From assembly GCA_016748015.1 (NCBI GenBank), contig JAAOMT010000503.1, forward strand, positions 397,669-461,668: a DNA stretch of 64,000 bases, given 5' to 3'. How positions within the stretch are numbered: the stretch's first letter is position 1; each line of letters starts with the position of its first letter. This DNA comes from Geosiphon pyriformis uo1 (Eukaryota > Fungi > Glomeromycota). Below the pieces are notes generated by a model. It saw only the letters and a list, made by a program, of their open reading frames with translations, was not told the origin of the DNA and ran no database searches. The position numbers and the translations under genes are program-made. This document shows positions 20,334-50,323 of this stretch, in pieces.

Positions 20334-20363
20334 GTTTTGTTATATTTTTGGTTTGAAATGTTT

Positions 20364-23300: not shown

Positions 23301-26300
23301 GGAAGAGTTTTTCCACAAGCTAAACATAGTGTATTATCCTATTTTCCCACTTATTTTGGTCTTCTAAAACATTCAACAAAACATGCGTGGCAATAAAACT
23401 TAGTTGCTGTCTGGTATTCTTCGTCATCATCACAGCATGTATCCATTAACAACAGTTTCTTGTCACAATCGACACATACTAGTTTGGGTCAGCAATAGGT
23501 AGACTGTTGTGATAGAGTGTAGGTGGCTGGAATATAAGTGTTGTTGGCTTGGGTGGTGTCTTTTTCTTTCCCTTTTCCTTTGTTTTTTCCTTTATCTTCT
23601 TCCCACTTCCAATTGGATGTCAGTTCATCATTGTCTGTTTATGTTAAATTGTCAGTCTCTCAGGTGAGTTCTTCTTTTTGTTTTCTTTTTTCTGGCTCAT
23701 CCCATAATAGTATTGGTGGTAGTTCATTGTGATCTTCATTGGCCCAAGACACTTGATAGGCTTCCCAGATAGGTTTTTTCTCTTCTTCTTCTAATTCAAT
23801 GAATGGTGTTGTTGGGGTGAGGATTTTGAAATGACCACACTTGGTGGGTACCTGTGTGTGTTGGCCATTCTGGCTAAGCTGTAGTTTTTGTGTGTTCCAG
23901 TCAAGCACAACATTTGCTTTGACTAACCAGTTATTACCAATTAATGCCTGGTACTGAATAGCTTCTATTACCAAAACTTTGATTAATGTAATAATACCGT
24001 TCACTTCAGAGGGAAAATCATCAATCTCACTGATAGGAGTTTTGGTTGCTCCATCTGCAGTAATGATTTGTGCACTGGCAGCTCAATCAACTTGGCGACC
24101 TAATTGGTCCATGAGTTGTCATGTGATTATACTGTCAGCTGATCTACTGTCTAGGATTAGTTTAATAGCATGGCCATCAACTTTTGTGTCAGTGTACATA
24201 GCGGTGATTGATTTGGTGTCAAGAGCAGCTCCACTAAATAATGGAACTGGTATAGTTTCTTCAAGTTTGAATGGGAAGATTGCTACTAGTGATTTGTCGT
24301 TGGTAACAGTGGCTGAAGGTATATTACTGGTGATTAGTTGTTTTTAGTTGGTTGCTGTGTTGTTGGGTGAGACGTTTTCTGGGATAACCAGAAGACTTAA
24401 ATAGTGTTGTGCATTCGGGTTTTGGCCATACCTGGTGCCTGAATTCTGTTGTCAAAATCCTGATGACAGGTTTACAGAACTGGGGATCGGTTGATGGACT
24501 ACTATTGACAATTTCCAGCTTTGTTGTGTTAATCTTGGTCTTTGAGTTCTATTTTGAGGTAAGTTATGTGGCAGTGTCTGATTTTGTTGGGGTGAATAAT
24601 TTATCTGAGACTGCGGCTGATAAATAGGTTGGGACTGCAGTTGATAAATTGATGCTGAAGGCTGATAGACTAAAGGTGAGTATAATTGCTGTATTATTGG
24701 GGTTTGATATATTGGCTGCATTATAGGTAGGTAATTTGGTTGATATAAAGCTGAGTTTGATTGATTACTGATGTAATTTTGAGTTTGTAGTTGGCAATCA
24801 GAGTTTTGATACTAATTAGTTAATCTTTGGTTGCTTATCTTTTTTCAACATTCAAATTGTAAATGTCTTTGTTTATCACAATAGTGGCATACATGCGTTT
24901 CTTGCTGCCACTGTTGATTGGTCAAGGATGATACTGGATGTGACTGATTTTGGGAGTGATTTCCATTTCCCTGATTGTTGCATCATTGGAGCAGTTGATA
25001 AATGATTTGATTAGTGTTAGCTAAGTATCCCTCTAATTTTTGATTGATTGATTTGCTGATTTGTTTTAATTTGGAATCCAGTTCAGATGGTTTATTCATT
25101 ACTAGATTTACTGCATGGACATGGTTGGCTTCGAGTTCAGTGGTTTCAAAATCTCTGGCATTCATAATAGCAGCTTGAAGATTTACTGGATGCATTGGGT
25201 GAATGTGTTAAAGAATACTACTATGTAGGCCTCTAATAAATTGATTCAGGATCTGTGGCACTGTGAAATAATCAGTCTGTATGGTCTGGATTTGGCACAG
25301 ATTTCTGTTGAAGTATTCTAAGTAAGTGGTAACTGCTTCATTTTCTTCTTGTTTGATGATGGTGAAAGTGTTGACTAGACAGTTGATACTATTATTATTA
25401 CTAAAATATCCCAGGAATGCAACTTTAAATTCCTGGAATGTTTGAGATTTGGCAACTAAACTTTGATACCACAAGTCAGCAGTATCTTATAGAAAATAGA
25501 GGATAGCTTGGAGTGCTCTTGCATTGTTCTATCTATTAACTGTGATGGCTTTTTCAACATTGTTAAGCCAGATTTGGGTGTCATCTTCTTCACCAGTAAA
25601 TTTCTTGAGTTTTGCTATTGGAGTGTAGGCCATTAGATCTAAGTTTGGTTGTTGAAGTTGTTGTTGTGGCTGTTGAAGTGACTGCTGAGATTGTTGAGAG
25701 GGTTGAATTGATTCAATAATTGGTTCAATTAATGGCTGATTAATGATGATTACTGGAGATAAGTTTGGCTGATTAATTGATTTGAGGTTTGAATTGTTTT
25801 GATTTCACAGTGTCTGAATATTTGGGGTTTTGATTTCTGGATTTTCTAAATCTAAATGTTGTTGAGCTTGGAGATTTGGGGTTTCAATTGTTGGATTTTC
25901 TGGGATTGGGTTTTGGTAAGTAAATTCTTAATTCTCAGATTCTTCTTCTTGCTCTTCTTCTGATTTCATTATTTCCTATAAATCAGAGATTCCAAAATCT
26001 GGTGGCAATGGCAGTGATTAAAGTCCTGATGGGGTTGGCGATCATGAATTAAATCCCTCGAAGTATTTATTATATGGTCCTAGTAGATCTGTTTTTCTTT
26101 GTTTACTTTGGAATACAAATCATCCAAATGTTGAGGTTGCATTTAATGTGAATGCATTTGCTAATGTAATATTGATGACACTTCCAGAAGTATAATAATA
26201 TGATGGATTTGTGGATGCTTTAACTCTGTGTTTCTTCCAAATGGGTGGTTGGATCCATTAAGGTGTTACTGCTGGTGTTTGTAGTTTTCCTTTGTCTTTG

Positions 26301-26614
26301 CTTGCGTAGGTAATTGAGTATTTTTGTTGTGTGTGATGTTCAATTTCTTTGTTAATCTCAGTGATGATGGATGCAAAATTATGATTTGTTGATAAGCTGG
26401 TGTTTTGGATTAATTTGTGGTAAAAGATTTTTCTTGCTGATTCAATATTTACTGGTGTTTCTAACAAATAGGCAATTCTTTCGTTGACATAAAAATTGAA
26501 GGCTGATTCTACTGATATATAATTTTGGTTTAATCCCAAATGTTGACAGTAGTGTTGAAATAAGAATTTTGTGAATCCTAAATGGTTTGCTCCTATACTT
26601 TCTGATTCTGCCAC
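20364..26614 (-). pseudogene. Gypsy B gag-PR-Cys-rich-dUTPase-RT-RNase H polyprotein, fragmented
   Basis: GTG start; CHYCDKQRHLQFEC knuckle; LILDS protease; ASRSSLAKKGINIRGGIIDTEY dUTPase; LDLDSGYWQV; YLDD; TTDASDQALGAVLSQ. Ends GLS(R)MRQI*. Confidence 0.92.
22196..22620 (-). pseudogene. dut: dUTPase domain in Gypsy B polyprotein
   Basis: TEFDLRY, ASRSSLA, GGIIDTEY, KIAQAI, KGIQGFGSMG. Confidence 0.9.
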
Positions 26615-26658
26615 TTTTGGGATAGGTGTAGTTGGTGCTAGTTCTCTGTAAAATTATA

Positions 26659-26675
26659 CCTCACAGAGAGCACCA
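26659..26675 (-). promoter_or_regulatory. Gypsy B primer-binding site TGGTGCTCTCTGTGAGG
   Basis: Starts with TGG 2 nt after the 5' LTR; complementary to a tRNA 3' end ...CCUCACAGAGAGCACCA. tRNA identity not determined. Confidence 0.85.
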
Positions 26676-26677
26676 AA

Positions 26678-27351
26678 TGTTACAGATAATTATTTGGGGT
26701 CTCAAGTCAAATAACAAATCTGTAACTTGGTGCTTAGTTTGTACTCGGGTGTTAATATTTGAAGGTTTTGTTGTGGAGTTCTTTGTATAATAGACAAAAA
26801 TGCTATTCTTAAATTTTTAATTCTTATATCCTTCCTTTGGAGTCTTTTACCAGACTATCCTTGATGTTAATAACTTAGTGCTTAACTTTTTAATCAATTA
26901 GTAAAACAAAGAAATAAAAACATAAAAGAAATAAAAGAAAATAAAGAAATAAACAAAAACAATTACAAGTTAGTATCCTGTTAATAGCCATAATCAAGAG
27001 CTATTGTTCCAGTGTGGTTAAGTATTAATTACTATCAACATGAAATGTTGATAATGGAGAGTAGATTTAGATGGTAAATAGTTATTTATTTGATATTTGT
27101 AAATGGAAGGTTGCTTAGATCAAATCTAAACTGAGAGGTCTGTCTTTTCTACTTTTAATGCTATCATTATATATACATAATTAATATTCTATGAGATCAC
27201 TCACATTTCTGAGTGATGTGCTATGATTTCTTGAGCAATGTGCCATAATTTCTGATATTGCTCCACATTGCTGAGCAATGTGTTCATGTGCTAAATACTA
27301 TTCTCTCATTGGTCTGCTATTTTCTATATCTGTTTCTTTTTATAAGTAACA
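26678..27351 (-). repeat. Gypsy B 5' LTR (674 bp, internally deleted relative to the 3' LTR)
   Basis: TGTTAC...GTAACA; lacks the segment between the GACAGAGAT direct repeats and has fewer 40-bp units. Confidence 0.94.
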
Positions 27352-30634: not shown

Positions 30635-31508
30635 TGTTACAGGATGGTTTTTTTGTTATATTTAATTGCTGATATCCTGTTTTAATTGCAATCAGTCTTT
30701 TGTGAGTTCCTCAATTCTATTTGTGTGATAATGTCACTATTATACTGAAAGCTTTCTTTTTAATGTTGTGATATAAGTTATTCTTCGATTCCTGATTGTT
30801 GTGTGTGTTTATGTACTTCTTTTCAGAGGCTAAACTGAAATCTACCCACTGTCTGGGGTCTTCTCTAAGGCTATTTTTGCAATTGCCTAATGTGTTTCTC
30901 TAATCTAAAAACACAGAATGTTAATAGTCTTTAGCATTTTTTCTAATTCTTACAATAAAGCTTTTATCAATTAGTAACAATGTGAATAATCTTGATCAAA
31001 AATTATTCTTTCAAGAGATTCAGCTGATGAATAATAGTTTTATTCAATAAATAATACAAGTAAGTTTCTTAATACTTTGAGTTGTGATAATTCAGTTTTA
31101 AATATTCTTTTTCATTTCTTTTTGATTTAAAGGTTTCTTGGGATATTTAATTTGAAAGTACGATTTAAAGTGGAGTTTGTTGGATAAAATTGGATCTATT
31201 GCTTGATAAGTTATGATTTTTATTACTTGATTGTCTTTTCCCAATATTAAAGCTACTGTATATATACATGTTTGTAGTTCTACGAGAAAACACATTGTAA
31301 TACTTTCTTTTTGATATTTCAATCTGGTGTTTGCTGCTATTACCAGTTGGTGTTGGCTGCTATTGTGAATTGGTGCTTGCCATTATCACAAAATGGTGTT
31401 TGCTACTATGTTAATTATTACCTTTCTAAAATTATTACTGCACTATATTATGATTGAATAGTTTGTATTATTTTTATGATTTTTTTGCTAAATTCTTAAA
31501 CCATAACA
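30635..31508 (-). repeat. Gypsy D 3' LTR
   Basis: TGTTAC...ATAACA; direct repeat of 49450-50323. Confidence 0.96.
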
Positions 31509-31521
31509 TTATTCCCTCCTT

Positions 31522-32120
31522 TCAAGATTGAGCTCTGTCGAAATCGAAGTTAATTTCTTCATTAAATTCTAAGTTACTATAATGATTCAATACTGTGTTA
31601 TTAATTTGTTGTTGTAATTCTTAAAATTGCGAGTTGGTAAGTCGTCCAATACTGTTGGTTGTTATTATGTTCATGGTTGGGTCCAACAATAGTTTGTGAC
31701 AGTTTTCAAATGCTTTGAAAATTCTGTAAACTGTTTTTGAATGGAATATAGTGTTGGTTTTTTCAATAAAAGATTCTAATAGTTGGATAGTTGTTTTGTC
31801 AAACACTCTAGTTGAGTCTTTTGAGTATAATGTTTGTATGTTCAAGTGCTTTCCTAGTTAATAATAACAGTAATTAATTGGAAATTTCATTTTCAAGTTG
31901 CTAAATGTGTCTGGTGTTAATTCACTTATTTCTATTTCTTCCATTATTAATGTATTGCCCAATGTTATCTCTAATTTTTCAATAACTTTACTGATAAATT
32001 TGTTGTTATATTTGGTAATATTATATGATTCAAAATTATGTTCTTTTTTTGTTTTTGGATTTTCTATTGTTTTTTTTATGTATGTTATTTTGGAGCTATT
32101 AACTGTGATTTTCAGATCGG
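31522..32120 (-). pseudogene. Gypsy D ORF3, C-terminal part (N-terminal part at 42090-42163)
   Basis: Removing C rejoins MILIPENINNITQQLIESLQQLKS|DLKITVNSSKITYIKK, homologous to C ORF3 MIIPQNIQKIFQKLMLALKTLSDLFITINGSQIKYIQK. Confidence 0.85.
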
Positions 32121-33113
32121 TGTTACCAGTAGAATTTTAGCTATTAATTAGCATGAAATTACCCTTATAATTTCTATAATTCATTAGTATATTAATATCA
32201 TTTCAAATTATCATTTATTATTTAATCAATTATTACATATCACGATTCAATTAAAATAATTTAATTAGTATAACAAAAAGTAAGATGATCAAATTACACA
32301 ATACCCTGAACTTTGTAACATTCAAAAATTCGCCGAAATTTACAGAAATTTGCTGAAATTTATAAGAAATTTGCCAAAATTATGAATAGTTCACCCAAAT
32401 TAATTAATAGTTCAGCAAAATAACTTGTAGTTCATCAAAATGTATCTTTAGTTTGCTGGAATTTGGGCAAAAAAGAAAAAGTGCAAGTTCATAAACTAGT
32501 ACTACAACAAGTTGTATAAAAGAAAAGCTTTTCTCTTTTGGAAAATGTATCTTATTTTAGATTTATCTCTTAAAACCGTTCCTATATACACAAAAAGAAA
32601 TAAATATCAAATAATTCGAAAAAACCAAATTCTTTAATTATTGTACTTGGAAAATCCCCAAAACCCAACTAACATTTCGAAATTGATTAGCTACCAATTT
32701 CAGTAAACTGTTAGTGACTCCAGGTCTGGATAGAAAATATTTCTCTTGACAAAATTCTATTTCTTTTACATTTCTTTTATTTTCCTTTTCTTTTCTTATT
32801 ACAATTATTAGGGTAGCCTACAAACAAGATTCCTGTAGAAGAGTTGACTTTCACAGCAAAGTAACTATACATTTTAGTGAGCTTCCAGATGAGCAATTTC
32901 TGGGAAAGAGTTGACGTTTACTACAACGTAACTACATAAAGTAACTGGCAAAGAATTGGCCATTCCACTTATAAGCCCAGCAGTTCAAATTATAGGAGAT
33001 AATTTGAAGATAAATTTAGTTATTGGAGGTTCAACTACTTCCTGAAAATGTGAATTCACAGCAAATCAACATTACCAACATTTAAGAAAAGAGACCAAAA
33101 ATCTCCAGTAACA
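32121..33113 (+). repeat. Gypsy C 5' LTR (993 bp)
   Basis: TGTTAC...GTAACA; near-identical to 41071-42089. Confidence 0.97.
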
Positions 33114-33115
33114 TT

Positions 33116-33131
33116 TGGTGCTCTCCCACGG
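33116..33131 (+). promoter_or_regulatory. Gypsy C primer-binding site TGGTGCTCTCCCACGG
   Basis: TGG 2 nt after the LTR; shares TGGTGCTCTC with family B. Confidence 0.85.
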
Positions 33132-33158
33132 AAATAACACAGCAACAACAAATTCAAA

Positions 33159-36100
33159 GTGGCGACCACACCAGACACAGCAACTCTAGAGTATTACCAG
33201 TCAATTTACACCCACTGCAAGCAAAGATTCAACATTTCAGACGGAATTGAAATTGTAAAGAAATCAGTATACCAATACATTGAAAACCGCATCAACAATT
33301 ATCTTTTTGGAAACTACAACATTTCAGAAGTTAGAAGCAACCTCTACAATAATTTAGTGCATTATTCACATTTGGGAACAGAAGACCTGAACAGTGAAAC
33401 ACTTGCTACCTACTTCCAAGAACTTAATTTTAATATTATTAAGCATTGTGAAGAAAAATACCCAGTACAGTCTAAATACTCTTTTGACTTTGAATCAGAG
33501 ACAGAAACAAGCAATAAAGGCAAACAAAGATTAAAGCAATACTCAAAAACCACTCCAAACACTCCAACACTACAAAAGACAACTGCCAAACACTTGCAAA
33601 CACCTGAACAAGGAACCAGTGTCAAATTACCACTTTCTATTACACTATTTCCAATTTCACTTGTTCAACCACAAACACCAAGTTTACCACTTAGCCATTT
33701 TTCCAGACTAGAAGATTTTCAGTCACCTAGAAATTCTACTCAACAGCAGGAACCAATATTAACAAGTGCCAATATCATTGATTACTTACAGGAAAACGAA
33801 AGTAATCACTCAGAAAGCTTGGAAAGTAAAGAAACTGAATCAGAACCAGAAGAAATTCCAGAAAACGAAGAAGAAATGGCAACTGCTTACATTGCAAAAA
33901 TCCCAAAATTTACTGGTAAAGACAATGATACCAGTCCCCAAAAATGGCTTGACAAAGTTCAAAAAGCAGGAGATGCAAATGGTTGGGTTGCAGCAAGAAT
34001 GCTCAAAGCAATTCCCTACTTTCTCCAAGGAACAGCAGGAGAATGGTTTAAAAATTTAGAAGAACCATTTGAAAACTGGCAAGCATTCAAAGATGCTTTT
34101 CTACAACAATTCATCGACAACAATACCTCTATCACTCTCAGAAACCATTTTCACAATATCAAACAAGAAACATCTGAATCTGTTATAATCTATTTTGAAA
34201 GATTTAACAAACTTCTCAGATGAATCTGACAATTGGAAACCAATGACTACTATTCTGATGCTCAAATTCTGGATCAGTTTATAGCAGGGTTAAAAGACAA
34301 ACTGATTAAAAAAGTCCATCCACATGCTCCAGCAAACTTAGCAACTGCTATTAGACATGCAAAGAGCTATGAAATGGCAATGGAAGAAGCAAATCACACC
34401 AAGCTTGTAAACCTTGCAATTAGAGAAACCAGCTCAGCAACTAAAAAGAAGATAGACCAACTCACAAAAAAAGTTGAAAGCTACTTCACAAACCAATAAC
34501 AACAACAACAACAACCACAAAGATATCAACTCCCACAATGATGCAACCAAAACAATTTTGGATCATTATCCAACAACCAATCTCAAAATTGTTATTATTG
34601 TGGAATTCCAGGGCATTGGAAACGAGATTGTAGGAAATTACAAAGAGACCAACAAAACAGGAGTAATCAACATTACTCTTCACCACAACAATCTTATTAC
34701 CAATCTCCACTACCAACTTATTATTCACCAAGACCACAAAATCAAAACAGTTACTATTCACCAGCTCCACAATTAATGCAGCAACAATATCAGCAATCTT
34801 TACCAATTCAGCCATATCAGACACCACCCATTCAACAATATCAAGTACCAGCAAGAAGATTGGTTCAACATAACCAATCCACACCCCAAAATCAATTGCA
34901 AAATAACCACAACAGAATCAATCCAAATAACCAGTTGGTTCCCCGAAATTCAGGCCAGCAAAGACCCAATTACTATCACACTCAACCCAGTTATCTTACA
35001 ATACCAGAAGAATCGGATTTTTAACAAACTGCACTTTCTGAAGGTAAAATTGCAGCACCAAGATCAAACTCTTCCAACCACACTATTTGCCCAGCTCAAA
35101 TTGCCCAAAATGCTAATCTGTTAGATATATTTCCATTTGAATTTAAGGCAAATAAATCACCATTTTTGCTTAGTAATGCAGCAGTCAATGAACAGAAAGC
35201 AATTACTGCCATGTACACAGAAGCTACAGTGGAAGGAAAACCCATTCCCTTAATCTTAGATAGTAGATCAGCTGGAAGTATCATCACTTACCAGCTGATG
35301 TAACAACTCAAACAAAACATAGACAGACCAGCTCAAACAGTTATTGTTACAGCTGATGGTATGAAGAAGACTCCAGTAGGAGAAATTGATGATTTCTCTT
35401 TTTCAATTGATGGAATCACCATTCCAGTTAAAGTTCTTGTTATGGATGCACCCCAATACCAAACTCTAGTCAGAAATGATTGGCTTCTCAAAGCCAATGC
35501 AAACCTGAACTGGGAAACTTAAGAACTTAAAATCTCATACCAAAGACAATATACCATAGTACCTGCAACCTATGGTACCTTTAACAAACAATCAGAAAAA
35601 GCTCCAGTATTTGAATTTGAAGAGGAGAAAAAAATGCCACTTACTGAAACCTACATGGCTCTTGAATCAACATCCAATTGGGCTGAAGAAACCAAACAAG
35701 AGATTTTCGAAGAATCAAGGGGATGGAAAAAAGTTAGATATTCTACACCAGAACCACAGAAACAACCACTCTATATTCTACTCAAATGCAAAGATTGCAA
35801 CAAAAAACTTTCATCAATGGAAGCATGTATTTTTCCAGAAAAGGAATATAAAACTCATATCTGTTATTTTTGCAAAGCATACCATAGAGAACGATTTGGA
35901 TCTCCAAAAAGAAGTGGAAAATGGGACAACACACCTTGCCTTACATGTGAAGAAATACTACCAGAAGAATGCAATTGGATTGATGTAGCAATGAAAGAAG
36001 GAGTATGTGATCAAACCTGTCAATATGCTCTATCAATTTTGGAAAAAGTCAGAAGAGGGACACCATTTAATGCAGCATACAACAGTGCTCTTAATAAACT

Positions 36101-38796
36101 TTACCACTACCCTCATGATGCTGAAATGATTTTTGACTTAGCAATGGCATTAATCAATGGAGCCACTCAAGAAGATATTCGCCAAATGAAAGAAGCTGAA
36201 TATATTGAGTACACCATGGAATTAGCTGGATTTGATTATGAAGATGAAGTAGAAACCTACTACCAAATTGCAAGCCACACATATCTGACCAAAGAAGCTC
36301 AAATTCAACGATTAGAGCAAATGAACATTCAATTGTGTGAAGAATGTATTATGCCTTGTGATGACCAATAGTGTTTAGAATGTTATGTTCTTAGCATTCC
36401 TCTGCCAGATGAGAATGATGAAAATAAAATCGAATTTGGAGTATCTGAACAAGTAGAAGAACTACTAACCACTCCCATCTATCTTCTTGAAAAGCAACTA
36501 CCTCTACAACTTAAATATTTTGACAACCATGGCCAAAGAATCAGACCAGAAAAAGCACATGAAATTGATGCTGGATATGACCTAAGATACCCAGGAAAAG
36601 ATACTTTAATTCTTCAACCAAAGTCTTTGACAAAAATCAATCTAAAAATTGCTCTTGAAATTCCACCAGGAGCAATGGTTCAAATTGCCTCCAGATTATC
36701 ATTGGCAAGCAAAGGAATCAATATTAGAGGAGAAGTTATAGATGCAGAATACACTGGAGACATTACCATCATGTTACAGAATGAAACAGACAAACCATTC
36801 AAAATTGAACATGCTAAAAAAATTGCTCAAGCAATTTACTTACCCTTAATCAACATTTCGGGTTTACAATCAGTAAACAACAGAGAACAATTGGGAAAAA
36901 GTGAAAGAGGAACTCAAGGTTTTGGTTTAACTGGACGATTTACAGTTCCAGTAAACATAGTTCTTAATACACAAAATGAATTTCACCAGATTCTTCAACT
37001 TCCTCAGCCAATTACCATTTCACCTTTTGGAGAACATCACGAAATTTACACTTGCTCAAAACTCACCACTACACAACAAATCTTTGAATCCAATGAACAA
37101 ATCTGTTTGAAGCATGAAATATCAATTCCAAACGTTTATATTCCCAAAGGAATGAAAAAATTTCGAGTTACATTCTACAACCCCAATAATTACCCTATTG
37201 TTTTATTAAACAAATTAGAAATTGGAATCATACACAGCAATATCTTTCAAGATGAAAACCCTCAAATTGTCTCTAATTTTATCGAAATTATAAAGCACAC
37301 TCTATTCCCAAATCCAAATATCATTCCCACTACTGAAAACTACTACTTGTTGGAAGAAAAACTCTCTTGAATCAATATGAGTCTCTTAGAACCTCAACAA
37401 CAAAGACAATTGAAACAATTGATAGCTGAATTTGCAGATATATTTGCAAAAGACAACAATGACTTGGGAAAAACAGACATTGTTCAACATCAGATCCATA
37501 CAGGAGATGCTCTACCAAAACGTCAACAAGCTTATCGAGTGCCACCTGCCAGCCACCAATTTATCAGAGAAGAGGTCCAAAGAATGCTTAATAACGGATT
37601 GATACAACCATTAAGAAGTCTTTGGGCCTCACCAGTAGTTTTGGTTAAAAAGAAAAACGGAAAAATTAGATTCTGTGTTGATTATAGACAACTGAATAGT
37701 GTTACAATTGGAGATGCCTACCCTCTTCCAAGAATTGATGACATGCTAGATGCTCTGGGAAAAGCTAAGTTCTTTTCAACTTTAGACCTGGAAAGTGGAT
37801 ACTGGCAAGTCGAAATAGACCCAAAAGATAGACCCAAAAGATAGACCCAAAACAGCATTCACCACTCAAGGAGGAAATTATGAGTTTAATGTTATGCCTT
37901 TTGAACTCTGCAATGCACCAGCAACATTTCAGCGACTCATGGATGTTGTCTATGAAGGGCTCTTGTGGCAATCAGTAGTTGTTTATCTTGATGATACTGA
38001 TGTATACTCACCAAGCTTTGAAGCCCATCTCATTCACTTGCAAGAAGTTTTTCAACAATTACAGAAAGCAGGATTAAAGTTAAATATTGAGAAATGTCAC
38101 TTTGGAAAAACAAGTTTGATCTTTCTTGGACACATAGTTAGTAAAGATAGAATCAAACCAAATCCAGGAACAATCAATGCTGTCAAAAACTTTCAAACCC
38201 CCAGAAATACTACAGAACTAAAAGGATTTGTGGGATTAGCCTCTTACTATCGAAAATTCATAAAAAAATTCTCAGAAATTGCCAAACCACTCAATTATCT
38301 TATCAACAAAAATGTACCATACAAATGGACTGAAGAACAACAAAAAGCTTTTGAAATTCTCAAAACAAAATTGACAACAGCCCCAGTTCTTGCTTACCCA
38401 GACTTCAACAAACAATTCCAATTAGCAATTGATGCCTCACATATAGCATTTGGTGCCATCTTATTACAATTGAATGAAAATGGCCAAGAACAAGTTATTG
38501 CCTATGCCAGCAGAACACTCAAGCCAACAGAACTCAAATATGGCTCAACTGAATTAGAAGCTGCTGCAGTTATCTGGGCTCTTAAACATTTTTAACAATA
38601 TCTGAAAAATGGAAAAGAATTTGACATAATAACAGACAACATTGGCCTCAAATGGCTCAATAAAAAGAAAACTGAACAAAGTGCCAAACAGTCTCAATGA
38701 AATGACTTCCTAGCAGACTACAGATATATTGTACACCACAAACCAGAAAAACTACATATCAATGTTGATAGCCTCTCAAGAATAAGACAAGATTAG
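33159..38796 (+). pseudogene. Gypsy C single-frame gag-PR-Cys-rich-dUTPase-RT-RNase H polyprotein (~1870 codons)
   Basis: Fragments starting at 33159, 34233, 34776, 35634, 36627 and 37377 share one frame; the only net shift is a 13-bp duplication in 37815-37853. CYYCGIPGHWKRDC at 34590; LILDS; VYLDD; ends DSLSRIRQD*. Confidence 0.94.
36500..36935 (+). pseudogene. dut: dUTPase domain in Gypsy C polyprotein
   Basis: DAGYDLRY, ASRLSLA, GEVIDAEYTG, KIAQAI, RGTQGFGLTG. Confidence 0.94.
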
Positions 38797-38853
38797 TACC
38801 AACAACAATTTCACCACAACTTACCAACTTACCAACAAAATAACCAAACAAGA

Positions 38854-40239
38854 ATAGATCCCAGAAACTACAGCAATCTTAAAAATTATTTGGAGACCCT
38901 TACCATGCCAGAAAACTGGTCTCCAAATGAAAAACACCGCTTATAACACCAATCAAAACAATATTTCATACACCAGAACAAAATCTATTATAAAAATCAC
39001 AGAAAACCAAACCAGCCACTCAGATTAGTACAAGAGAATGAAAAAGAAACAATTTTATACAACATACACACAGATCTGTCTTCAGCACACTTGGGAAAAG
39101 AGAAAACAATTTAAAGAACCCTTGAACATTATTTTTGGCCTCACATGCAAAAAGACATTTAACAATATGTAGAATCTTGTAATAACTGCCAAAAAAGAGG
39201 AGAAACTTGCCCCACAGAACCTTTAAATTCAATCAAAGTTGGACAACCTTTTGACAGAGTTGGAATTGATTTAGTCAGACCATTACCTATCACAACCCAA
39301 GAAAATCATTATATTGTAGTTGCAGTAGATTATTTTACTAAATGGCCTGAAGCTAGAGCCATCCAAAGAGCAGATGCAAAATCAGTAGCAAAATTCATCT
39401 ATGAAGACATTATCTGTAGACATGGATGCCCAATTGAACTCTTATCTAATCAAGGAACACATTTTGTGAACAACTTGATACAAAAAATTTGTGAACGGTT
39501 CAATGTCAAAAGACCTCTATCATCACTTTATCGCCCTTAAACAAATGGACTTGTAAAACATTTCAACAGAACATTGTGTGAATCTTTAGCCAAAGTTTCA
39601 ACAGACTTTGAACAGGAATGGGATATCTTTATTCCATCAGTGTTACTAGCATACAGAACACTAAAACAAGATACTATGAAACACACACCATTTGATCTTA
39701 CTTATGGAAGGACAGCAACATTACCAATTAATTTCACAGTGGAAACATACCCAGTGCAACCAATCAATGAAGAAAACTTTCAAGAAACACTCCAAAGAAG
39801 AGCCTACACTCTTCTTAGTACACTGGAAGAAAAAAGAAGAATAGCAGCAGCTCATATTGAACATTTCCAAGCTCAACAAAAAGAAAGACATGACAACAAA
39901 TTACCATTTATTACCAATGAATTTAAAGTTGGAAATAAAGTTTTCTTACACAGAACTAAGGCTGAAAAACAATGGAGTGGAAAATTTGAAAACAAATAGG
40001 ATGGACCATTTTATATTCACGAAATTCTAAGCAATGGATCATATAAGTTAAGACTTGATGACAAAATATTAGCAAAAGTTGCACATGGAGACAAACTGAA
40101 ACACTATTATTCCAGAAACAATCCTGAACCATTAATTCCACAAATTAGTACACATTCCCCTTTAATTAATCCTGAAGATATTCCCCGAAATTTAGAACCA
40201 ATAATTATAATAAAACAACAACCAAACTTGAACACTTAA
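38854..40239 (+). pseudogene. Gypsy C integrase, separate ORF (start ATA, probably decayed ATG)
   Basis: HTDLSSAHLG...CNNCQ, VGIDLV, LSNQGTHF, NGLVKHFN, DGPFYIH; no chromodomain. Confidence 0.88.
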
Positions 40240-40382
40240 ATTTTACAATAATTCTCTACTAAAAACACAAAGACAAAAATAGTAAATAATTACAAAACAC
40301 CCAAACCCAAAAACAAATAAAAACCCCATATCCAAAAAATAATTTTCTTTATTTTCTCTTTTCATAATTAGTCAATTTTATC

Positions 40383-41090
40383 ATGATTATTCCCCAAAAT
40401 ATTCAAAAAATATTCCAAAAATTAATGTTAGCCTTGAAAACACTCTCTGACTTATTTATAACAATTAATGGAAGTCAAATTAAATACATTCAGAAAGAAA
40501 CCACAGCCCCAGTAGCAAATCATTTACAGAACTATCACCCCTATAAAAGAGAAACAAGAAGTCACTTTGAGAATAGATTACCAAGACTTTTAAAGCAGGC
40601 ACTAGAAGAAAATCTGCTAATTGCCCCTATTGACATTTCACCAAATGCTACAATGCAACAAAAACTACTACTACTTCTTAATGAACAGAACAATAAACAC
40701 ACCTCTATCTATAAATACTTTCAAATTGGAAAAACACTTTATGAACGAAAACTGGAACTTGAAGCAACAAATCTCACTCCTGAAGTTATACAAAAACAAA
40801 TCTACAATGAATTCAAAACAGCAGCTGGACCAACAAACACTCGCTACAAACTTAGAGCAGCTTTTAGACTCTATGACTTGTTTAATACTTGTGAAAATGT
40901 TCTACAAAATCCAATACTGCAATCAATAAAAGTCCAATACATTGGCAAACTCACAGAACTGAAATTTCAACAATTTTCAGACCAGATTACTTCAATCATT
41001 TTAGATCACTATCTCAATATTACAGATAGTGCTTGGACTTCAACAGAATTCAGTCTTGAGGAAGAGATTATGTTACCAGTAGAATTTTAG
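40383..41090 (+). CDS. Gypsy C ORF3, intact 235-aa protein of unknown function
   Basis: Open ATG-to-TAG frame that reads through the PPT and 20 bp into the 3' LTR; homologues in A, B and D. Confidence 0.85.
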   Translation: MIIPQNIQKIFQKLMLALKTLSDLFITINGSQIKYIQKETTAPVANHLQNYHPYKRETRSHFENRLPRLLKQALEENLLIAPIDISPNATMQQKLLLLLNEQNNKHTSIYKYFQIGKTLYERKLELEATNLTPEVIQKQIYNEFKTAAGPTNTRYKLRAAFRLYDLFNTCENVLQNPILQSIKVQYIGKLTELKFQQFSDQITSIILDHYLNITDSAWTSTEFSLEEEIMLPVEF

Positions 41091-42089
41091 CTATTAATTA
41101 GCATGAAATTACTCTTATAATTTCTATAATTCATTAGTATATTAATATCATTTCAAATTATCATTTATTATTTAATCAATTATTACATATCACGATTCAA
41201 TTAAAATAATCTAATTAGTATAACAGAAAGTAAGATGATCAAATTACACAATACCCTGAACTTTGTAACATTCAAAAATTCGCCGAAATTTACAGAAATT
41301 TGCCGAAATTTATAAGAAATTTGCCGAAATTATGAATATAAGAAATTTGCCGAAATTATGAATAGTTCACCCAAATTAATCAATAGTTCAGCAAAATAAC
41401 TTGTAGTTCATCAAAATGTATCTTTAGTTTGCCGGAATTTGGGCAAAAAAGAAAAAGTGCAAGTTCATAAACTAGTATTACAACAAGTTGTATAAAAGAA
41501 AAGCTTTTCTCTTTTGAAAAATGTATCTTATTTTAGATTTATTTCTTAAAACCATTCCTATACACACAAAAAGAAATAAATATTAAATAATTCGAAAAAA
41601 CCAAATTTTTTAATTATTGTACTTGGAAAATTCCCAAAACCCAACTAACATTTCGAAATTGATTAGCTACCAATTTCAGTAAACTGTTAATGACTCCAGG
41701 CCTGGATAGAAAACGTTTCTCTTGACAAAATTTTATTTCTTTTACATTTCTTTTATTTTCCTTTTCTTTTCTTATTACAATCATTAGAGTAGTCTACAGA
41801 CAAGATTCCTGTAGAAGAGTTGACTTTCACAGCAAAGTAACTATACATTTTAGTGAGCTTCTAGACAAGCAATTTCTGGGAAAGAGTTGACATTTACTAC
41901 AATGTAACTACATAAAGTAACTGGCAATGAATTGGCCATTCCACTTATAAGCCCAGCAGTTCAAATTATAGGAGATAATTTGAAGATAAATTTAGTTATT
42001 GGAGATTCAACTACTTCCTGAAAACGTGAATTCACAGCAAATCAATATTATCAACATTTAAGAAAAGAGACCAAAAACCTCCGGTAACA
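41071..42089 (+). repeat. Gypsy C 3' LTR (1019 bp)
   Basis: Equals the 5' LTR plus one extra 26-bp TATAAGAAATTTGCCGAAATTATGAA unit. Confidence 0.97.
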
Positions 42090-42247
42090 TCGGATTTTAA
42101 TTGTTGTAAGCTTTCAATTAATTGTTGAGTTATATTGTTGATGTTTTCTGGAATAAGTATCATTGTTTTAATTTTGACTGCTATTTTGGAATCTTTTGCA
42201 TGTGGTTTTATGGTTGTTAAATCATTTTTGCTGTAATCTAAGATTAA

Positions 42248-43627
42248 TTATCTTTTTAAATAATGTTCAATTAAAACTATTGGTTCTAAATCTTGTGGAA
42301 TTTGTTCTGGTAGAATTAAAAATAATTGTGTTCTAATTCTGGGTGTCTTTGTTTTTATTACTGGTTTACTGTAATAGAATTTCAGCTGGTTACTATGTGC
42401 TGCTTTTCTTAAAATTTTATCATCTAGTCTTAGCTTGTATGCTTCATTTCCAAGTATTTTGTGAATATAAAATGGTCCATCCCACTTGTGATCAAATTTT
42501 CCACTCCATTGTTTTTCCATTTTTGTATAATGCAACAATACTTTATTTCCAATTTTGTAGCTAATTATATTATCTGGTAATTGGTTATTATGTCTCACTT
42601 TTTGTTGTTCTTGTGATTGTTCAATATTTTGTGCTGCTTTTCTTCTTTTGTTTTCTAAAGTTCCTATTAATTTGTATGTTCTTCTAAGTAGTGTTTCCTG
42701 AAATGTTGCTTCTATGATAATGTCACTTGGATAAATTGAAATAGTAAGTTCAATTGGTAATGTGGGTTTTCTTCCATAAACTAGTTCAAATGGTGTGAAT
42801 TGTATAGTATCTTGTTTTACTGTTCTATATGCTAATAGTACTGCTAGTATGAACAAATCTTATTCTTTTTTATGTTCATTACTAATTTTCACCAGTAATT
42901 CGCATAATGTGCAATTAAATCTTTCAACTAATCCATTTGTTTGAAGGTGGTATGGTGATGACAGTGGTTGCTTGATTCCAAATTTTTGGCTAAGTTCTTT
43001 TAAGATGCTGTTTATGAAGTGTGTGCCTTAATTTGATAGCAATTCTTGTGGACATCCATGCTGGCAAATTAAGTCTTCATGTACGAATTAAGCTATGGAA
43101 ATAGCATCAGCTGTTTTAATAGCTCTAGCTTCTGGCCATTTAGTAAGATAGTTCATGGCTATTGCAATATAATGGTTGTTTCTTGTTGTTATTGGTAAGG
43201 GTCCAACTAAATCAATTCCAATTTTGTCAAATGGCTGTCCAACTTTTATTGGTCTTAATAATTCCATTGTTTTTGCTTCTCCTTTTTGTTGGCATGAGTC
43301 ACAATTTTTTATGTATTGGATTATGTCTGAACTCATTTTTGGCCAATAGTAATGGCTAGTTACATGTTGGATGGTTGCTGTTTTTCCAAAATAGTCTGAA
43401 TGAATATCTGAGTGCATGTTAAATAAGATAGTTTTTTTTTCATCTGTGATTATAACTCTTAATGGATTATCTAGATTTTGTCAATTCCAGTAATAAAGTA
43501 TGTGATTTTAGATAAAATAGTGTTTTGCTAATTTTTGGAACTTAATTAGCTCTTTTATTGATATTTTTTTATCTATTTGTAGTGTTTCCAAGTATTGGCT
43601 GAGGTTTTTGTAAAGGTGGTTGTTTAT
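42248..43627 (-). pseudogene. Gypsy D integrase, separate ORF
   Basis: HSDIHSD..CDSCQ, IGIDLVGPLP, NGLVERFN, KWDGPFYIH; ends QDLEPIVLIEHYLKR*. Confidence 0.88.
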
Positions 43628-43656
43628 TGTTGTTGTGGTGGGTGGGTTGGTAATTT

Positions 43657-46600
43657 TTATGTGTGTCTCATTCTTAACAAACAGTCAGTATTAGCATTTT
43701 TGGTACCTTCTTTGTATTTGATAATATAATTGTATGGTGCTAACATTTGTGATCATTTGGTGTATTTTTTTTTTAGCACTTTCTTGTTATTTAATCAGAC
43801 CAGACCTCTATGATCTGTGGTAATCTCAAAGGGTTGGTACCATAAATATGTGTCAAAGTAAACACAACTCCAGACTACTGCTAAGCATTTAAGTTTATGT
43901 GCTGCATAGTTTTGTTCTGTCATACTGAAACTTCTGCTGGCATAAATGATTACATGTTCTCTTTCATTATCATCTTTTTGTGACAGAATGGCTCCAAGTC
44001 CAGTTCCAGAAACATCTGTGGCCAAAATAAATTTCTTGTTAAAATTCGAATAGATTATTATTGGTAATTCAATGAGCTTTTGTTTAAGGTACTCAAAAGC
44101 TTTTTGTTATGCTTTAGTCCATTCAAATTTCACATTTTTGAATAGTAAGTAATTAAGAGGTTTGGTGATATTTGAAAAGTTTTTTACAAAGCAGCAGTAG
44201 TAAGATGCAAGTCCTAAAAAGCTTCTAACTTCTGAAACATTTTGAGATACTGGAAAATTTTTCACTTTGGCTATTTTTGATGGATCTGGTTTTATTTCAT
44301 TTTTTCTAACTATGTGTCCTAAAAATGCTAGCTCATTTTTTCCAAAGAAACATTTTTTTAGATTTAGTTTAAGTCCAGTGTGTTTCAATCTCTCAAAAAC
44401 TTGTTGTAAATGTTGGAGATGATCTGTGAATTTTGACGAGAAAACATTTGTATTATCCAAGTAAACAACAACAAATTGCCATAGAATTCCAGAGTAAATT
44501 ACGTCCATTAGTCTTTGGAATGTCACAGGAGTGTTTGTTAATTCAAATGGCATTATATTGAACTCATAATTGCCATTTTGTGTTGTAAATGCTGTTTTAT
44601 GCCTGTCCTTTGGGTCCATTTCCACTTGCCAATACTCACTAGTCAAGTCCAGTGTAGAAAACCATTTTGCTCCTCCAAAAACATCGAAGATTTTGTCAAT
44701 TAACAGTATTGGATATGAGTTTTTGGTTGTTTTGCTGTTTAGTTTGCAATAGTTAATGCAAAATTTAATTTTTCCATTCTTTTTTCTTACTAAAACAACT
44801 GGTGAGGACCATGGGGTCATTGATGGTTGGATTATTTCTTTTTCCAACATGCTTTGGACTTTTTCTCTGATAAAATTATGCTTCATTGGTGGAACATGGT
44901 AAGCACGTTGTTTTTTAGGTCTGGTGTCTCCAGTGGGGATTTGGTGTTGAATTAAGTTGGTTCTTCCAAATTTGTCATTTCATGAAAATATATTAGAGTA
45001 TTTTAAAATTAATACTTTTAATTGTTGCTGTTGGTCAGGATCTATTGTTTTAATGTTTAATTTGGCCAATTCTTCTGGCATAAATTGATAGTATTCTAAT
45101 AGTTGTTGCCAATTTATTGAAGTGAGTTTACAGTAGAGAGCAATTTCTAAGAAATTTAGAATTTTTTGTGGTGTTGACGTGTTTTCTAGCTCCGTTCTGA
45201 GATATCCAATGATAGTATCTTCCTGAATGTAGATGGGTTCTTCTGTGGTGTTTGTGATAGAAATTTTTATTCATTGAGCTTTATCAGCTGGAATAAAAAG
45301 GTTAGTAAGTCCTATAAGAAACTGTTGGCAAGTTTCTGGGTAGGATTCAAATATTAGGTCTTTTTCTTTAATTGTCCTTTTTATTTTTATTTCTGATTTT
45401 CCATATAGTAAGAGTGTAATAGACTGCTCATTTTTAATTACTTTGTCTTTTTCCTCTATTGTTTTAGTAAAATTCGCTTCAATTCCTTTTTCTGTTGATC
45501 CGAAATCAAAAGTTTTTCTTGTTGTTTGTGACAATTCTTCACAATTTTCTACTGGCACAAATTTTCCAATTTTTACCAATGGTAGAAAAATTGCTTGTGC
45601 AATTTTTTCCTTAGATTCAATGGTATAAGGCTTTTCTGAATTGTTCTATAGCAAAACCATTAAATTTCCAGTGTATCTGAAGTCAATTACTCCTTCTTAA
45701 ACACTTATTTTTTTTTTCATGAGGCTTGATCATGACGCTATTTAAACTATTATTCCTGGTGGAATTTCAACTGCTATTTTTAGGTCAATTTTGGTGATGC
45801 TCCTGGATGGTAACGTTGTGGATTGGTCTTTTGGATAACATAGATCGAATCTGGCATCAGTTGGATGGGCTCTTTCAGGTATTATTCCTAAGTGCCCATC
45901 ATCAAAGTATCAGATGTTGATCACCTGTTCTAGGTTGGTATAGGCCACAAATTTTTCTGATTCGGAACTGTCAGGTGAGTTTTGTTGATTTATTGATTGA
46001 TTTTGAGACTGCTGATTCTCAATTTCCATTTTTTTTTTAAGTCCCTTTCATCTCAACACTTTTCACAGCACTGATTTTGGCACAGGATAAGACAGTTTTC
46101 GTAGAGGTAAGTGTTGATTTGGATGAGGTATTGTTCTTACTCTTGTCGAGTAGGACATAGTTGTTGATAGTAGTTCTGGAATTTGTCCACTGAATCGAAC
46201 ATGTTGTAGCTGACAACTTTGTCAGCTACTTCGGCTGACTCTTTCCAGTGTCGTATTTCTTCAGTGGTTCCTCCTCTTACTTTGGCTTGTGCAGTGTTGT
46301 ACAACTCATTCTCGTCATGTGGGTAGTGCTATAGTCTTTTTAATGCTCTGTTGAATGCTGCTTCAAATGGCATTTCTCCTCTTATCCAGTTACAGATGAG
46401 GATCGTATATTGGCAAGTTGCATCACACATTCTTCCTCTGCCTGGTATGTCATTCCAGTCATACTCTCTTGGTAACAGTTCTTTACAAGCAAGGCACGGT
46501 TCCTTGTCTCATTTTCCATGTCTTTCTGGGTAACTGTATTTTTTTTTATTACAACGGTTACAATAGTAGTGAGTGGAGTTTCTTGGGTCTTTGTTTGGTA

Positions 46601-49367
46601 CACTGCACACAGTCATAGATGAGAGTTTCTTCTTGCAAACCGAGCATTCTAACTTTGGTCTGTGTTGCTGGTGGTTTCTTCATAGACTTACCTGGTTTCA
46701 TTCGGATCTTTCTTCACTGATCCATGTTGATACAACTGGTAGTTCTGTTCTTTGGTCATTAGCCCAAGAGAGCTGATAGGTTTCGATGGCTGGTAGTGCT
46801 GGATTTTTCTCAAATTCGAAGGTAGGTCTTTGGTTGGCACTGGGTTTTTGGAAGTGGCCACAGGTGGCTGAAATTCTGGCCTGGTGGCTATTATAATTGA
46901 TCAAAAGCTCTTGGGTGGTCCAGTTTAGAGTGGCATTGGCTTTTGTTAACCAGTTATTTCCTACTAACACTTGATATTGTGTAGTGTTCATTACTAATAC
47001 TTTTGTAGATATTACTATGCCATTAATTTCGAAAGAGAATGAGTCGATTTCACCATAAAACAGCTTTGTACTTTCATTGGCTGTTATGATTTGGGATGTC
47101 GTGGCATGATCAACTTTGAAACCTAGTTGGTTTACTAGTTGAAGTATTACAATGCTTCCAATGGATCCGCTGTCTAAGATAAGTTTAATTGAGGTATTGT
47201 TTATAGTGGCTTCTGTATATATAGTAGTGATTGGGCATTTTTTGTCCAATGCTGCTCTACTGAACATAGTTTTGTTTTTCTCTAATTCAAAAAGAAAAAT
47301 AGCTGCGAGGCTGCTATTTTCGGTGGTAACTGCTGGTGGTATTGTCTGGCTCAATTTTTTGGAGGAATTTTTGGTTCTGTTTATGTTTCTACCATCATTG
47401 TTTTCAATGATTAGATTTTCTGGTATATTAAGATAAGTTTGTTGATAATTTTGGTAGTTTAGATTGGTTTGCTGATTGGTTCCAATATGGTTTGGATTCC
47501 TCTGGACCAATGCGTTCTGGTTCTACATGGGCTGATTTCAGGCCTCGGGATGCCAATATGGGTTGGTTATTATGGGCTGTTGCTGGTAAGTTTCTTGATT
47601 TTGATATGTGGTAAGATATTGGCGTGGTATTGGCGTGTACTGGTTTTTGGACATTTGGGATGGCATGTAGTAATTATTTTCACATGTTTTCTGCATTATT
47701 TGCATTCAACATTGACTAATCAAATGTTCTATGTATTTGCAAAAATAGCAGACATGCATTTCTGTTCTGAATTCCTAATGTGACGAGTGATTATTTTGAC
47801 TGTTGCTAACTTCCTGACTGTGTCTTTAGAGTGGTTGGTATGTATTTCTTCTTGGATCCAGGATAAGGTAACTTTCTATTTTCTTAGAGAGTTCCTTCCT
47901 TAATTGCATTACTCTTTTCTTTAATGTTTCTGTCTTATTTTTCTTCATTACTATGTTAACTATTTGATTATGGTTAGCTTTTTTCTCAGCCAATTCAAGG
48001 GCTCTGGCGAGCGTAACGGTTTCTGGTAAGGAATTAGGATAGGCAGGGCGTACTCTTCCTAAAATACTGCTTTTTAATCCTCTAATAAACTGATTTAAAA
48101 CCTGAGAATCAGTGTAGTATCTTTGTTCAATCACTTTAATCTGATGGCAAATTCAATTGAATCAAGCAAGATATTGGGTGAGAGTTTTACTAGTATTTTG
48201 CTTGATAGTATTGAATTTGTTCTGTAGTTGGATTATGGCATTTGGGTTGCTAAAATACTCCAGGAGTGCATTTTTAAATTTGGCGAAGCTCGTGGGTTTT
48301 GTTTCCAGACTTTGATATCACAAGTCGGCTGTGCCTTTCAGGAAGAAAGATAATGTTTGAATTGCTCTTTGGTTGTTCCAGTTATTTGTTTGGATGGCTT
48401 TTTGTGTTTCTCTAAGCCACATGTGCATGTCCGTTTCTTCTTCTTCTCCTGAGAAATCTGTTAGTCTTGTAATATATGATGTGGCCATTTTGTTGCCATT
48501 TTCTGCTGGTGGGCTTATTGGTCTAAGAGGAGGTGGGATGATATTTCCTTGAGCATTCCTAAAGGTGGCTTCCTTTATATCTGGTTTTTTCTCTTGATCA
48601 TGAGTTTTTTGGTTTCTGGACTGGCTGCTTATTCCAGTGACTGGTCTTGTAATTGTTTTTTCACTGGTTTCTTTTTTGGATTCTAATTCTGATTCCTCTT
48701 CTTGGTTTTCAAACCCCATTTCGAATTTTGGCTGAAAAAAAGGGTTTTGGAATAGTGATGAATATCCTCTTGTAATTGGTATGTCTCCTCAGTTACGTTG
48801 TTTAATTTTATCAGTATAACTAAGAGTTCTTGGCATTTGTGGAGTTGATGTTGATGATAATGCAGCTCCTAATGGAATTTGTATCTTATTTTCTGGTGAA
48901 AAATGGTATGATTTATCTTCTAGTGAATAAATACGTTGTTTTTTTATTGATTGAGTGACAGTTTTCTTTGGTGTTTGAGCAGGTGTTCCTAGTTTTTGCT
49001 GGTTACTTTCCTGATTAATTTCTGAATTTTTTTTGGTTTTGTTGGCACATTCCCTAGTGTTTCCTGTGGATATTGGAAAATTTTTGTTGGCATATTGCTT
49101 AATTTTTCGATGAATTTTGACAATAGTTGCGGCTATTACTGCTACTTTTTTTGTAGTGTATTGTGATAATTCTCTATACAATCCAAGTTTTGTGTCATGT
49201 GGTTCTTCTTCCTTTCCTATATGATAATTTATTCTGGCATTGATATAATAAGTGAGAACAGATTCTGCTGGACAACACTCTTCTGGTAATTCAAGATCAC
49301 TTTGATTTTGTGTGTAAATAGCATGGCAGAATTCAAGAACAGTAAGGTTAAGGGTTTTTGTCACCAC
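43657..49367 (-). pseudogene. Gypsy D gag-PR-Cys-rich-dUTPase-RT-RNase H polyprotein, fragmented
   Basis: GTG start; CYFCKYIEHLISQC; LILDSGS; ERAHPTDARFDL...VIDFRYTG...KIAQAI...FGSTE dUTPase (~45490-45920); VYLDN; ATDVSGTGLGAILSQ. Ends DCLLRMRHT*. Confidence 0.92.
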
Positions 49368-49449
49368 TTTTGTCTCTTCCTTTTTAGCAATGAATTATTG
49401 CTAATTATTATTTCCTTTTTGATTTTCTTTCCTCATAGAGTTCACCAAA

Positions 49450-50323
49450 TGTTATGGGATGGTCTTCTTGTTATATTTAATTGCCAATATCTCATTTTAA
49501 TTGCAATCAGTCTTTCGTGAGTTTCTTAATTCTATTTGTGTGATAATGTCACTGTTATACTGAAGACTTTCTTTTTAATGTTGCAATGTAAGTTATTCCT
49601 CAATTCCTGATTGTTGTGTGTGTTTATGTACTCCTTTTCAGAGGTTGAACTAAAATCTACCCACTGTTTGGGGTCTTCTCTGAGGCTATCCTTGCAATTG
49701 CCTGATGTGTTTCTCTAATCTAAAAACACAGAATGTTAATGGTCTTTAGCACTTTTCCTAATTCTTACAATAAAGCTTTTATCAATTAGTAACAATGTGA
49801 ATAATTTTGATCAAGAATTATTCTTCCAAGAGATTCAGCTGATGAATAATAGTTTTATTCAATAAATAATACAAGTAAGTTTCTTAATATTTTGGGTTGT
49901 AATAATTCAGTTTTAAATATTCTTTTTCATTTCTTTTTGATTTAAAAATTTCTTGGGATATTTAATTTGAAAGTATAATTTAAAGTGGAGTTTGTTGGAT
50001 AAAATTGGATCTATTGCTTGATAAGTTATGATTTTTATTACTTGATTGTCTTTTTCCAATATTAAAGTTACTGTATATATACATGTTTGTAGTTCTATGA
50101 AAAAACACATTGTAATATTTTCTTTTTGATATTTCAATCTGGTGTTTGCTGCTATCACCAGTTGGTGTTGGCTGCTATTGTGAACTGGTGCTTGCCACTA
50201 TCACAAGATGGTGTTTGCTACTATGTTAATCATTATCTTTTTAAGATTATTACTGCACTATATTATGATTGAATAGTTTGTATTATTTTTATGATTCTTT
50301 TGCTAAATTCTTAAACCATAACA
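49450..50323 (-). repeat. Gypsy D 5' LTR
   Basis: Direct repeat of 30635-31508; PBS at 49447-49431. Confidence 0.96.

Follow-up and report, generated by a model that had tools for sequence, protein, structure and literature searches.

We have asked what the dUTPase encoded within the pol region of Ty3/Gypsy retrotransposons of the fungus Geosiphon pyriformis is, where it came from and whether it was kept as an enzyme, by analysing a 64,000-nucleotide stretch of genomic DNA, here called the window. Malar et al. 2021 reportedly list dUTPase among the Pfam domains enriched in Geosiphon. The reading that we favour, and consider probable, is that the window holds decayed, non-chromoviral Ty3/Gypsy copies whose Gag-Pol dUTPase served to keep uracil out of cDNA, accompanied by a predicted non-catalytic second module with the dUTPase fold.

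Ty3/Gypsy elements of the window

Four Gypsy elements with an internal region are present in the window (Table 1), A and B forming one family and C and D two further families, with B nested inside D. TG...CA ends with exact 4-bp target duplications are found in 4/4 and the gene order gag-protease (PR)-reverse transcriptase (RT)-RNase H (RH)-integrase (INT) in A, B, C and D, both as in Ty3/Gypsy elements, with an extra 3′ ORF besides. A PBS-like stretch 3′ of the 5′ LTR and a polypurine-tract-like stretch 5′ of the 3′ LTR are recognisable from the sequence in 4/4. In B, gag shares a frame with PR, the dUTPase and the start of RT. No chromodomain was detected, the integrase tails ending after the GPF/SH3 region in 4/4 elements and a single chromodomain query giving no match under E 1.4.

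At all five insertion sites, target duplications are 4 bp long with a central pyrimidine-purine step (the four in Table 1 and ATGG/ACAG at a solo LTR), which suggests a target preference. One solo LTR lies at 51479-52456 and another, older one within 55500-56470. The window also contains non-LTR retrotransposon-like remnants with weak endonuclease, RT and RNase H matches (1-3100, 28327-30665, 50500-55500 and 57224-62691), an N gap at 1231-2097, a 57-bp tandem array at 3233-3916 and a very AT-rich decayed stretch at 14530-17380. LTR sequence is reported to make up 41% of the Geosiphon genome (PMC11952901).

Table 1. Positions in the window of the four elements, of the modules of element B and of the two dUTPase-fold domains of each element
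Feature	Position	Strand	Remarks
Element A	4634..14527	-	Same family as B, 85% DNA identity; target duplication ATGT
Element B	32121..42089	+	Ty3/Gypsy LTR retrotransposon; TG...CA ends; 4-bp target duplication TCGG
Element C	17382..27351	-	Second family; target duplication ATAT
Element D	30635..50323	-	Third family; split by B (30635-32120 and 42090-50323); target duplication ACGC
LTRs, B	32121-33113 (5′ LTR, ending at 33113); 41071-42089 (3′ LTR)	+	96% alike
PBS-like stretch, B	33114..33135	+	TGG right after 5′ LTR; sequence only
gag, B	33138..34740	+	N-terminal extension, capsid, CCHC knuckle; Retrotrans_gag E 1e-12; has stops
Aspartic protease, B	35205..35570	+	2 stops; Pfam protease matches on D copy
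Cys-rich spacer, B	35571..36500	+	Conserved CxxC pairs; A-B dN/dS 0.39
dUTPase, B	36501..36935	+	Open frame; motif I 36567, II 36687, III 36726, IV 36816, V 36903
Motif-less dUTPase-fold domain, B	36984..37250	+	Predicted fold
RT + RNase H, B	37401..38790	+	Frameshift near 37826 from short tandem duplication
Integrase, B	38791..40200	+	GPF/SH3-like tail, without chromodomain
Extra ORF before 3′ LTR, B	40368..41090	+	240 aa; A-B dN/dS 0.26
Polypurine tract, B	41050..41070	+	
dUTPase, A	9751..10182	-	1 stop, 4 key departures
dUTPase, C	22196..22624	-	1 stop, 4 key departures
dUTPase, D	45487..45921	-	4 stops, 4 key departures and one unaligned end
Motif-less dUTPase-fold domain, A	9436..9705	-	Predicted fold
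Motif-less dUTPase-fold domain, C	21884..22147	-	Predicted fold
Motif-less dUTPase-fold domain, D	45181..45447	-	Predicted fold

Identity, position and intactness of the dUTPase

The dUTPase of B is of the trimeric type, matching PF00692 at E 1.2e-20 with 74 bits against a curated cut-off of 22, and TIGR00576 is matched by 9/9 aligned dUTPase domains. PDB sequences matching it at E<=0.001 number 73, and the 60 listed are all dUTPases or wsv112. A profile search in six frames detects exactly four copies in the window, scoring 163-227 bits over a background below 1 bit. Each is located between PR and RT in pol, in frame with the RT start in 4/4 and with PR in 2/4, A and D having one frameshift each in the upstream spacer. 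The domain adjoins neither PR nor RT, being preceded by a Cys-rich spacer of ~310 residues and followed by a second dUTPase-fold domain. A dCTP deaminase identity was rejected, as TIGR02274 reached 60.6 bits in the first row against a cut-off of 92.8 and dUTPase motif V is present.

An earlier note on this DNA had described a complete dUTPase between PR and RT in every Gypsy copy; the location holds for all four elements but completeness for none, each copy departing three or four times from the canonical residues. Departures were scored at 19 key positions, which, like the five-motif patterns, are our own list, drawn up from dUTPase motifs and checked against PDB alignments. Nor are all five motifs clear in A, B and C, as had been claimed: A and C each combine four departures with a stop, B has three, in motifs II, III and V, with no stop, and no window copy passes the five-motif pattern test (0/4). 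The catalytic Asp and Tyr of motif III are retained in all four. In DNA reads from one run, possibly of the same source sample and not independent, most copies carry letters other than those of B at two motif positions.

Constraint and intact relatives

At family level the five motifs are intact. The longer proteins matching the dUTPase region number 98, of which 96 are from Geosiphon pyriformis (up to 89% identity), and among these relatives the canonical residue is the commonest at 19/19 key positions, so that the catalytic residues are present in the consensus as the majority state. Individually, only 3 of the 61 relatives spanning the dUTPase are without any departure. Many Geosiphon gene models, most of the 96, thus carry a dUTPase domain because they are pieces of retrotransposons.

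In five of the six pairs of window copies, dN/dS of the dUTPase is 0.36, 0.16, 0.25, 0.37 and 0.37, the sixth being saturated, and that of RT is 0.07-0.19 where measurable. Transversions at second positions fall below those at four-fold positions in 4/6 pairs (p<=0.002; pairs share branches and are non-independent), with no significant deficit in A-B (p=0.12) or C-D (p=1.0), synonymous sites being near saturation. These results agree with the earlier proposal that the domain was kept under selection across three families. Between the C and D dUTPases, a transversion is observed at just 1/21 four-fold sites, compared with ~0.3-0.7 in other domains, and A is frequent in both, so this similarity would reflect bias or module exchange.

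Metagenome proteins and loci carry PR-dUTPase-RT in open frames at 50-63% identity. All five motifs are passed by 14 of their 21 dUTPase domains, three of the misses being cut-short sequences, although 11 of the 21 were found via motif I/III patterns, which makes this intactness partly circular, and one is a duplicate. Locus L006 encodes gag-PR-spacer-dUTPase-RT-RH in a single open frame of ~2,000 codons and further shows the Cys-rich spacer, integrase, the extra ORF and an LTR-like region; a single-sequence fold model of the metagenome protein P0058 reached only pLDDT 31. Combined, the canonical majority at 19/19 positions, the intact metagenome relatives and dN/dS of 0.16-0.37 suggest that the dUTPase of the active ancestors was likely functional.

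Decay of the copies

LTR-LTR differences consist almost entirely of transitions (192/200, with 8 transversions). Of 991 differences between A and B, 468 are C>T and 384 G>A, on both strands and about twice as frequent at CpG, and CpG occurs at 0.14-0.26 of its expected frequency. A C>T or G>A change alone could account for 243/265 of the departures at dUTPase key positions in the 96 Geosiphon proteins, compared with 31% expected for random single changes. With both changes on both strands and an excess at CpG, the decay fits deamination of methylated cytosine by the host in copies already inserted, not uracil misincorporation in the course of reverse transcription; G>A hypermutation through the latter was rejected as the cause, as C>T outnumbers G>A between A and B. 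TE methylation has been reported in Rhizophagus (PMC8647823).

A second, motif-less domain

In all four copies the dUTPase is followed by ~90 conserved residues. This second domain, absent from the earlier note, is what is new here. No catalytic dUTPase motif is recognisable in it in 4/4 copies, and it has no Pfam match at E<=0.1. Its profile is colinear with dUTPase profiles over 82 columns (hhalign E ~0.001; reversed controls E 0.06-0.13), with ~17% identity to the adjacent dUTPase. A structural model from a 46-row alignment, the columns of which were checked to contain just that stretch, has pLDDT 73-89 over residues 21-90. Foldseek matches of the model in the PDB are dUTPases in 34/34 listed rows, and the named viral structures matched are almost all dUTPases or relatives. 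VIA, which is independent of Foldseek, compared it with 48,161 chains and ranked dUTPase folds at all of positions 1-20 (Z 8.0-5.6), with the first unrelated row at 5.2; the best match has an rmsd of 3.1 over 87 residues, its Z of 8.0 being middling, and non-enzymatic herpesviral proteins of the dUTPase fold were matched as well. The second domain is thus predicted to be a non-catalytic dUTPase-fold module, for which a structural or partner-binding role is likeliest.

Within family A/B the second domain is constrained (dN/dS 0.18), whereas between families it diverges faster than the dUTPase, with 21-41% identity against 44-52%. Its profile matched 111 proteins. Of 11 metagenome dUTPase proteins examined one, P0058, was matched, P0265-P0382 gave no match at E<=1e-5, and in the sequences searched the domain is confined to Geosiphon proteins and P0058. 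In three outgroup-like Gypsy proteins (P0347, P0308, P0267), RT is immediately preceded by a beta-rich stretch that weakly resembles dUTPases and aligns with dUTPase profiles over 81 columns at E 0.001-0.003 (reversed controls 0.26-0.31).

Other modules

The Cys-rich spacer, which is likely metal-binding to judge from its CxxC pairs, matches no Pfam family and gave nothing usable in Atlas. It has an acidic helical middle, its last CxxC cluster is common to P0246 and P0248, and matching parts occur in A, C and D. The extra 3′ ORF, which is under constraint, has related, decayed counterparts in A (5590-6282), C and D and is also present in L006 at 746-1441; weak similarity to a Mucoromycota cluster was detected in Atlas.

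In three Gypsy proteins of the same RT clade, P0333, P0342 and P0352, gag and PR are separated by a NUDIX (MutT-like) domain, with a Nudix box fitting the pattern in 2/3. The three form a group (99/95) with two further rows, whose sequences begin downstream of where a NUDIX would lie. The possibility that NUDIX occupies the dUTPase slot was rejected, as it sits upstream of PR. In fungal NUDIX subfamily K, 9/14 members are reported to have retrotransposon domains (PMC12210691).

Phylogeny and origin of the dUTPase

When relatives of the RT-RH region of one intact element were collected, two of the best 120, one being the query, carried PF00692 and three carried NUDIX; the nearest named relatives are from Rhizophagus irregularis and R. 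clarus. From this set 43 dUTPase-less, 3 NUDIX and 9 outgroup rows were taken into RT trees of 67 and then 39 rows. The four window elements group together (support 98/93) in a Glomeromycotina-type Gypsy clade. In the best RT tree dUTPase bearers fall into three lineages among dUTPase-less ones, a single clade not being rejected (AU p=0.064).

The dUTPase tree (73 rows) unites 31 element rows with support of 99/98 in a group that also takes in another element-like row and two long rows of viral type. Under a mixture model (40 rows) support for the group is 100/97, an element-only clade not being rejected (p=0.41). Eukaryote-type rows (Salix, Bursaphelenchus) fall outside this group in a tree taken without Glomeromycotina host, endobacterial, Tmt1, Postia or rotifer dUTPases, and the motif II/III signature of the elements, S-R-S and D-x-G-Y-T-G, differs from that of eukaryote-type rows. 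Incongruence of the dUTPase and RT trees, as expected from module swapping, gave no significant signal (AU p=0.19). Phage dUTPases provided no clear donor, with best matches at ~42% or less, and a pattern-limited scan of bacterial and archaeal genomes returned 30 pattern matches, none related; since that scan was pattern-limited, the donor may nevertheless have been endobacterial.

Judged from the sequences, the capture is old, predates the window families and is not specific to the Geosiphon genome, because the same dUTPase group occurs in metagenome elements of two other RT lineages. Most likely the active domain was gained once, early in the clade, from a source not of host type, many sister lineages having lost it since; a single ancient gain followed by repeated loss is the simplest reading. 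That the capture was independent of published cases is plausible. Elsewhere, P0234 is by our own reading a Copia-like polyprotein with a dUTPase before the integrase region, and P0236 and P0216, partial dUTPases from Linderina and Coemansia, group apart from eukaryote-type enzymes.

Proposed function and alternative readings

From the domain order, frame, constraint and intact relatives of these decayed elements we infer the following sequence of events. In active ancestors the Gag-Pol frame would have been translated as one polyprotein and packaged with RT, and the element PR would have cut out the dUTPase, either alone or joined to the second domain. Trimers of the enzyme, inside the particle or close to it, would then hydrolyse dUTP, yielding dUMP and pyrophosphate, and less dUTP near RT would mean less uracil in cDNA and, by analogy with lentiviruses (PMC4531489), less uracil-triggered repair or mutation. 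Non-primate lentiviruses without dUTPase are reported to show more G-to-A mutation and impaired replication in non-dividing cells (PMC4531489). Against the favoured reading stands that most of the best 120 RT relatives lack PF00692. The high-dUTP environment that the earlier note suggested for reverse transcription is, on the present evidence, conjecture.

The constraint on the motif-less copy of the fold raises the question of whether the dUTPase fold as such was kept mainly for a non-catalytic job, as particle scaffold or in binding a host repair or defence protein, with catalysis secondary. An inactive dUTPase-related peptide of BIV is reported to be required for replication (PMC4531489), and herpesviral non-enzymatic proteins of this fold are among the second-domain matches; the catalytic residues of the five motifs, in contrast, are the majority state among the relatives and vary little or not at all between divergent intact elements, and we regard this reading as distinctly unlikely. 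The view of the dUTPase as a neutral passenger, or as a host gene picked up recently in Geosiphon, is barely tenable and already largely refuted by the constraint between families, by the occurrence of the domain in three RT lineages, with metagenome elements at 50-63% identity among its bearers, and by a motif II/III signature unlike the eukaryote-type rows, which group apart; it would accommodate the broken state of all window copies and the many relatives without the domain, and the dUTPase tree had no Glomeromycotina host row. An identical PR-RT position would also be expected if one capture were common, by descent or module swap, to a described group, namely Tmt1, the Postia/Phanerochaete chromoviruses or the rotifer elements Juno, Vesta and TelKA. 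This appears unlikely, as the four integrase tails have no chromodomain, which the chromoviruses that include Tmt1 do bear (PMC12581995), and no named Tuber, Postia or rotifer protein was among the dUTPase-region matches of word-limited searches.

For the second domain, it is quite possible, though we lean the other way, that it did not arise by duplication of the adjacent dUTPase and is instead an older dUTPase relic of the PR-RT slot in many Ty3/Gypsy elements, with the active enzyme added in front later. Its low identity to the adjacent dUTPase and the alignment of the pre-RT stretch of the three outgroup-like proteins with dUTPase profiles are consistent with this, and a dUTPase domain is reported in one vertebrate metavirus (PMC11011659). 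The second-domain profile, however, detected just one of the metagenome dUTPase proteins checked and none of P0265-P0382, and it matches the outgroup stretch weakly (E 0.027 over 28 columns); only 1/71 upstream stretches fit the pattern, and the patchy range of the domain fits local tandem duplication equally well. A wider picture, which we offer as conjecture and think doubtful, is that this Gypsy clade, from fungi of mycorrhizal type, repeatedly collected enzymes that clean the nucleotide pool (dUTPase in three lineages, MutT-like NUDIX in a further one), that the Geosiphon branch fused an active dUTPase to a cooperating dead fold and that this dead fold may be an ancient PR-RT part of many Ty3/Gypsy elements; if so, retrotransposon dUTPases would be ancestral rather than sporadic.

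The favoured function, exclusion of uracil from cDNA, touches a matter called unclear in PMC2864245, namely the role and origin of LTR-retrotransposon dUTPases, and no functional test of these enzymes was found in the literature searched. The clade offers natural contrasts, with sister elements that have a dUTPase, a dUTPase and a dead fold, a NUDIX, or neither, and naturally intact dUTPase domains exist in P0058, P0248 and L006.

Comparison with known systems

Literature searches yielded no paper on Geosiphon together with dUTPase, and none in which the title or opening of the abstract described a Glomeromycotina dUTPase element or a tandem dUTPase fold; the word 'dUTPase' is absent from the main text of PMC8778642, PMC3248453 and PMC6416283. 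In Entomophthora, dUTPase is reported as enriched along with TE domains (bioRxiv 2023.09.13.557621).

The PR-dUTPase-RT layout has been published for Postia placenta PosPlaTy3-5 and Tuber melanosporum Tmt1 (PMC2864245, PMC5408684, PMC12581995) and for three rotifer lineages (PMC5408684). Postia elements are described with the dUTPase at three positions, one being between PR and RT, following earlier cases in Phanerochaete and Tuber (PMC2864245, which has its dUTPase tree in a supplement). Like the window elements, Tmt1 and PosPlaTy3-5 are fungal Ty3/Gypsy elements with a dUTPase between PR and RT, but by description they are chromodomain-bearing chromoviruses, whereas the window elements lack a chromodomain and have their own 4-bp target duplications, Cys-rich spacer, second dUTPase-fold domain and extra 3′ ORF. 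Closer in some respects are Juno, Vesta and TelKA of bdelloid rotifers, which are non-chromoviral and Gypsy-like, with PR-dUTPase-RT across whole lineages and an extra ORF3; they differ in their animal host, and their description in PMC5408684, on which the comparison rests, mentions no second dUTPase fold.

Lentiviral and betaretroviral dUTPases resemble those of the window in being polyprotein-encoded and trimeric with five motifs, and provide a model for function, but belong to enveloped viruses and differ in position, lying between RT and IN in non-primate lentiviruses and fused to NC before PR in betaretroviruses (PMC4531489). Duplicated or catalytically dead dUTPase folds are found in the monomeric dUTPases and dUTPase-related proteins of herpesviruses and in the inactive dUTPase of BIV, whereas in the window elements the first domain has, for the family, five motifs in normal order and the second has none. 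Gypsy elements of Rhizophagus irregularis and R. clarus (P0322, P0361) and the NUDIX relatives (P0333, P0342, P0352) belong to the same broad RT clade; P0322 has no dUTPase between PR and RT, unlike the window elements. Thus, the PR-dUTPase-RT layout was already known, the lineage that carries it here appears undescribed in the literature searched, and the second dUTPase-fold domain is new.
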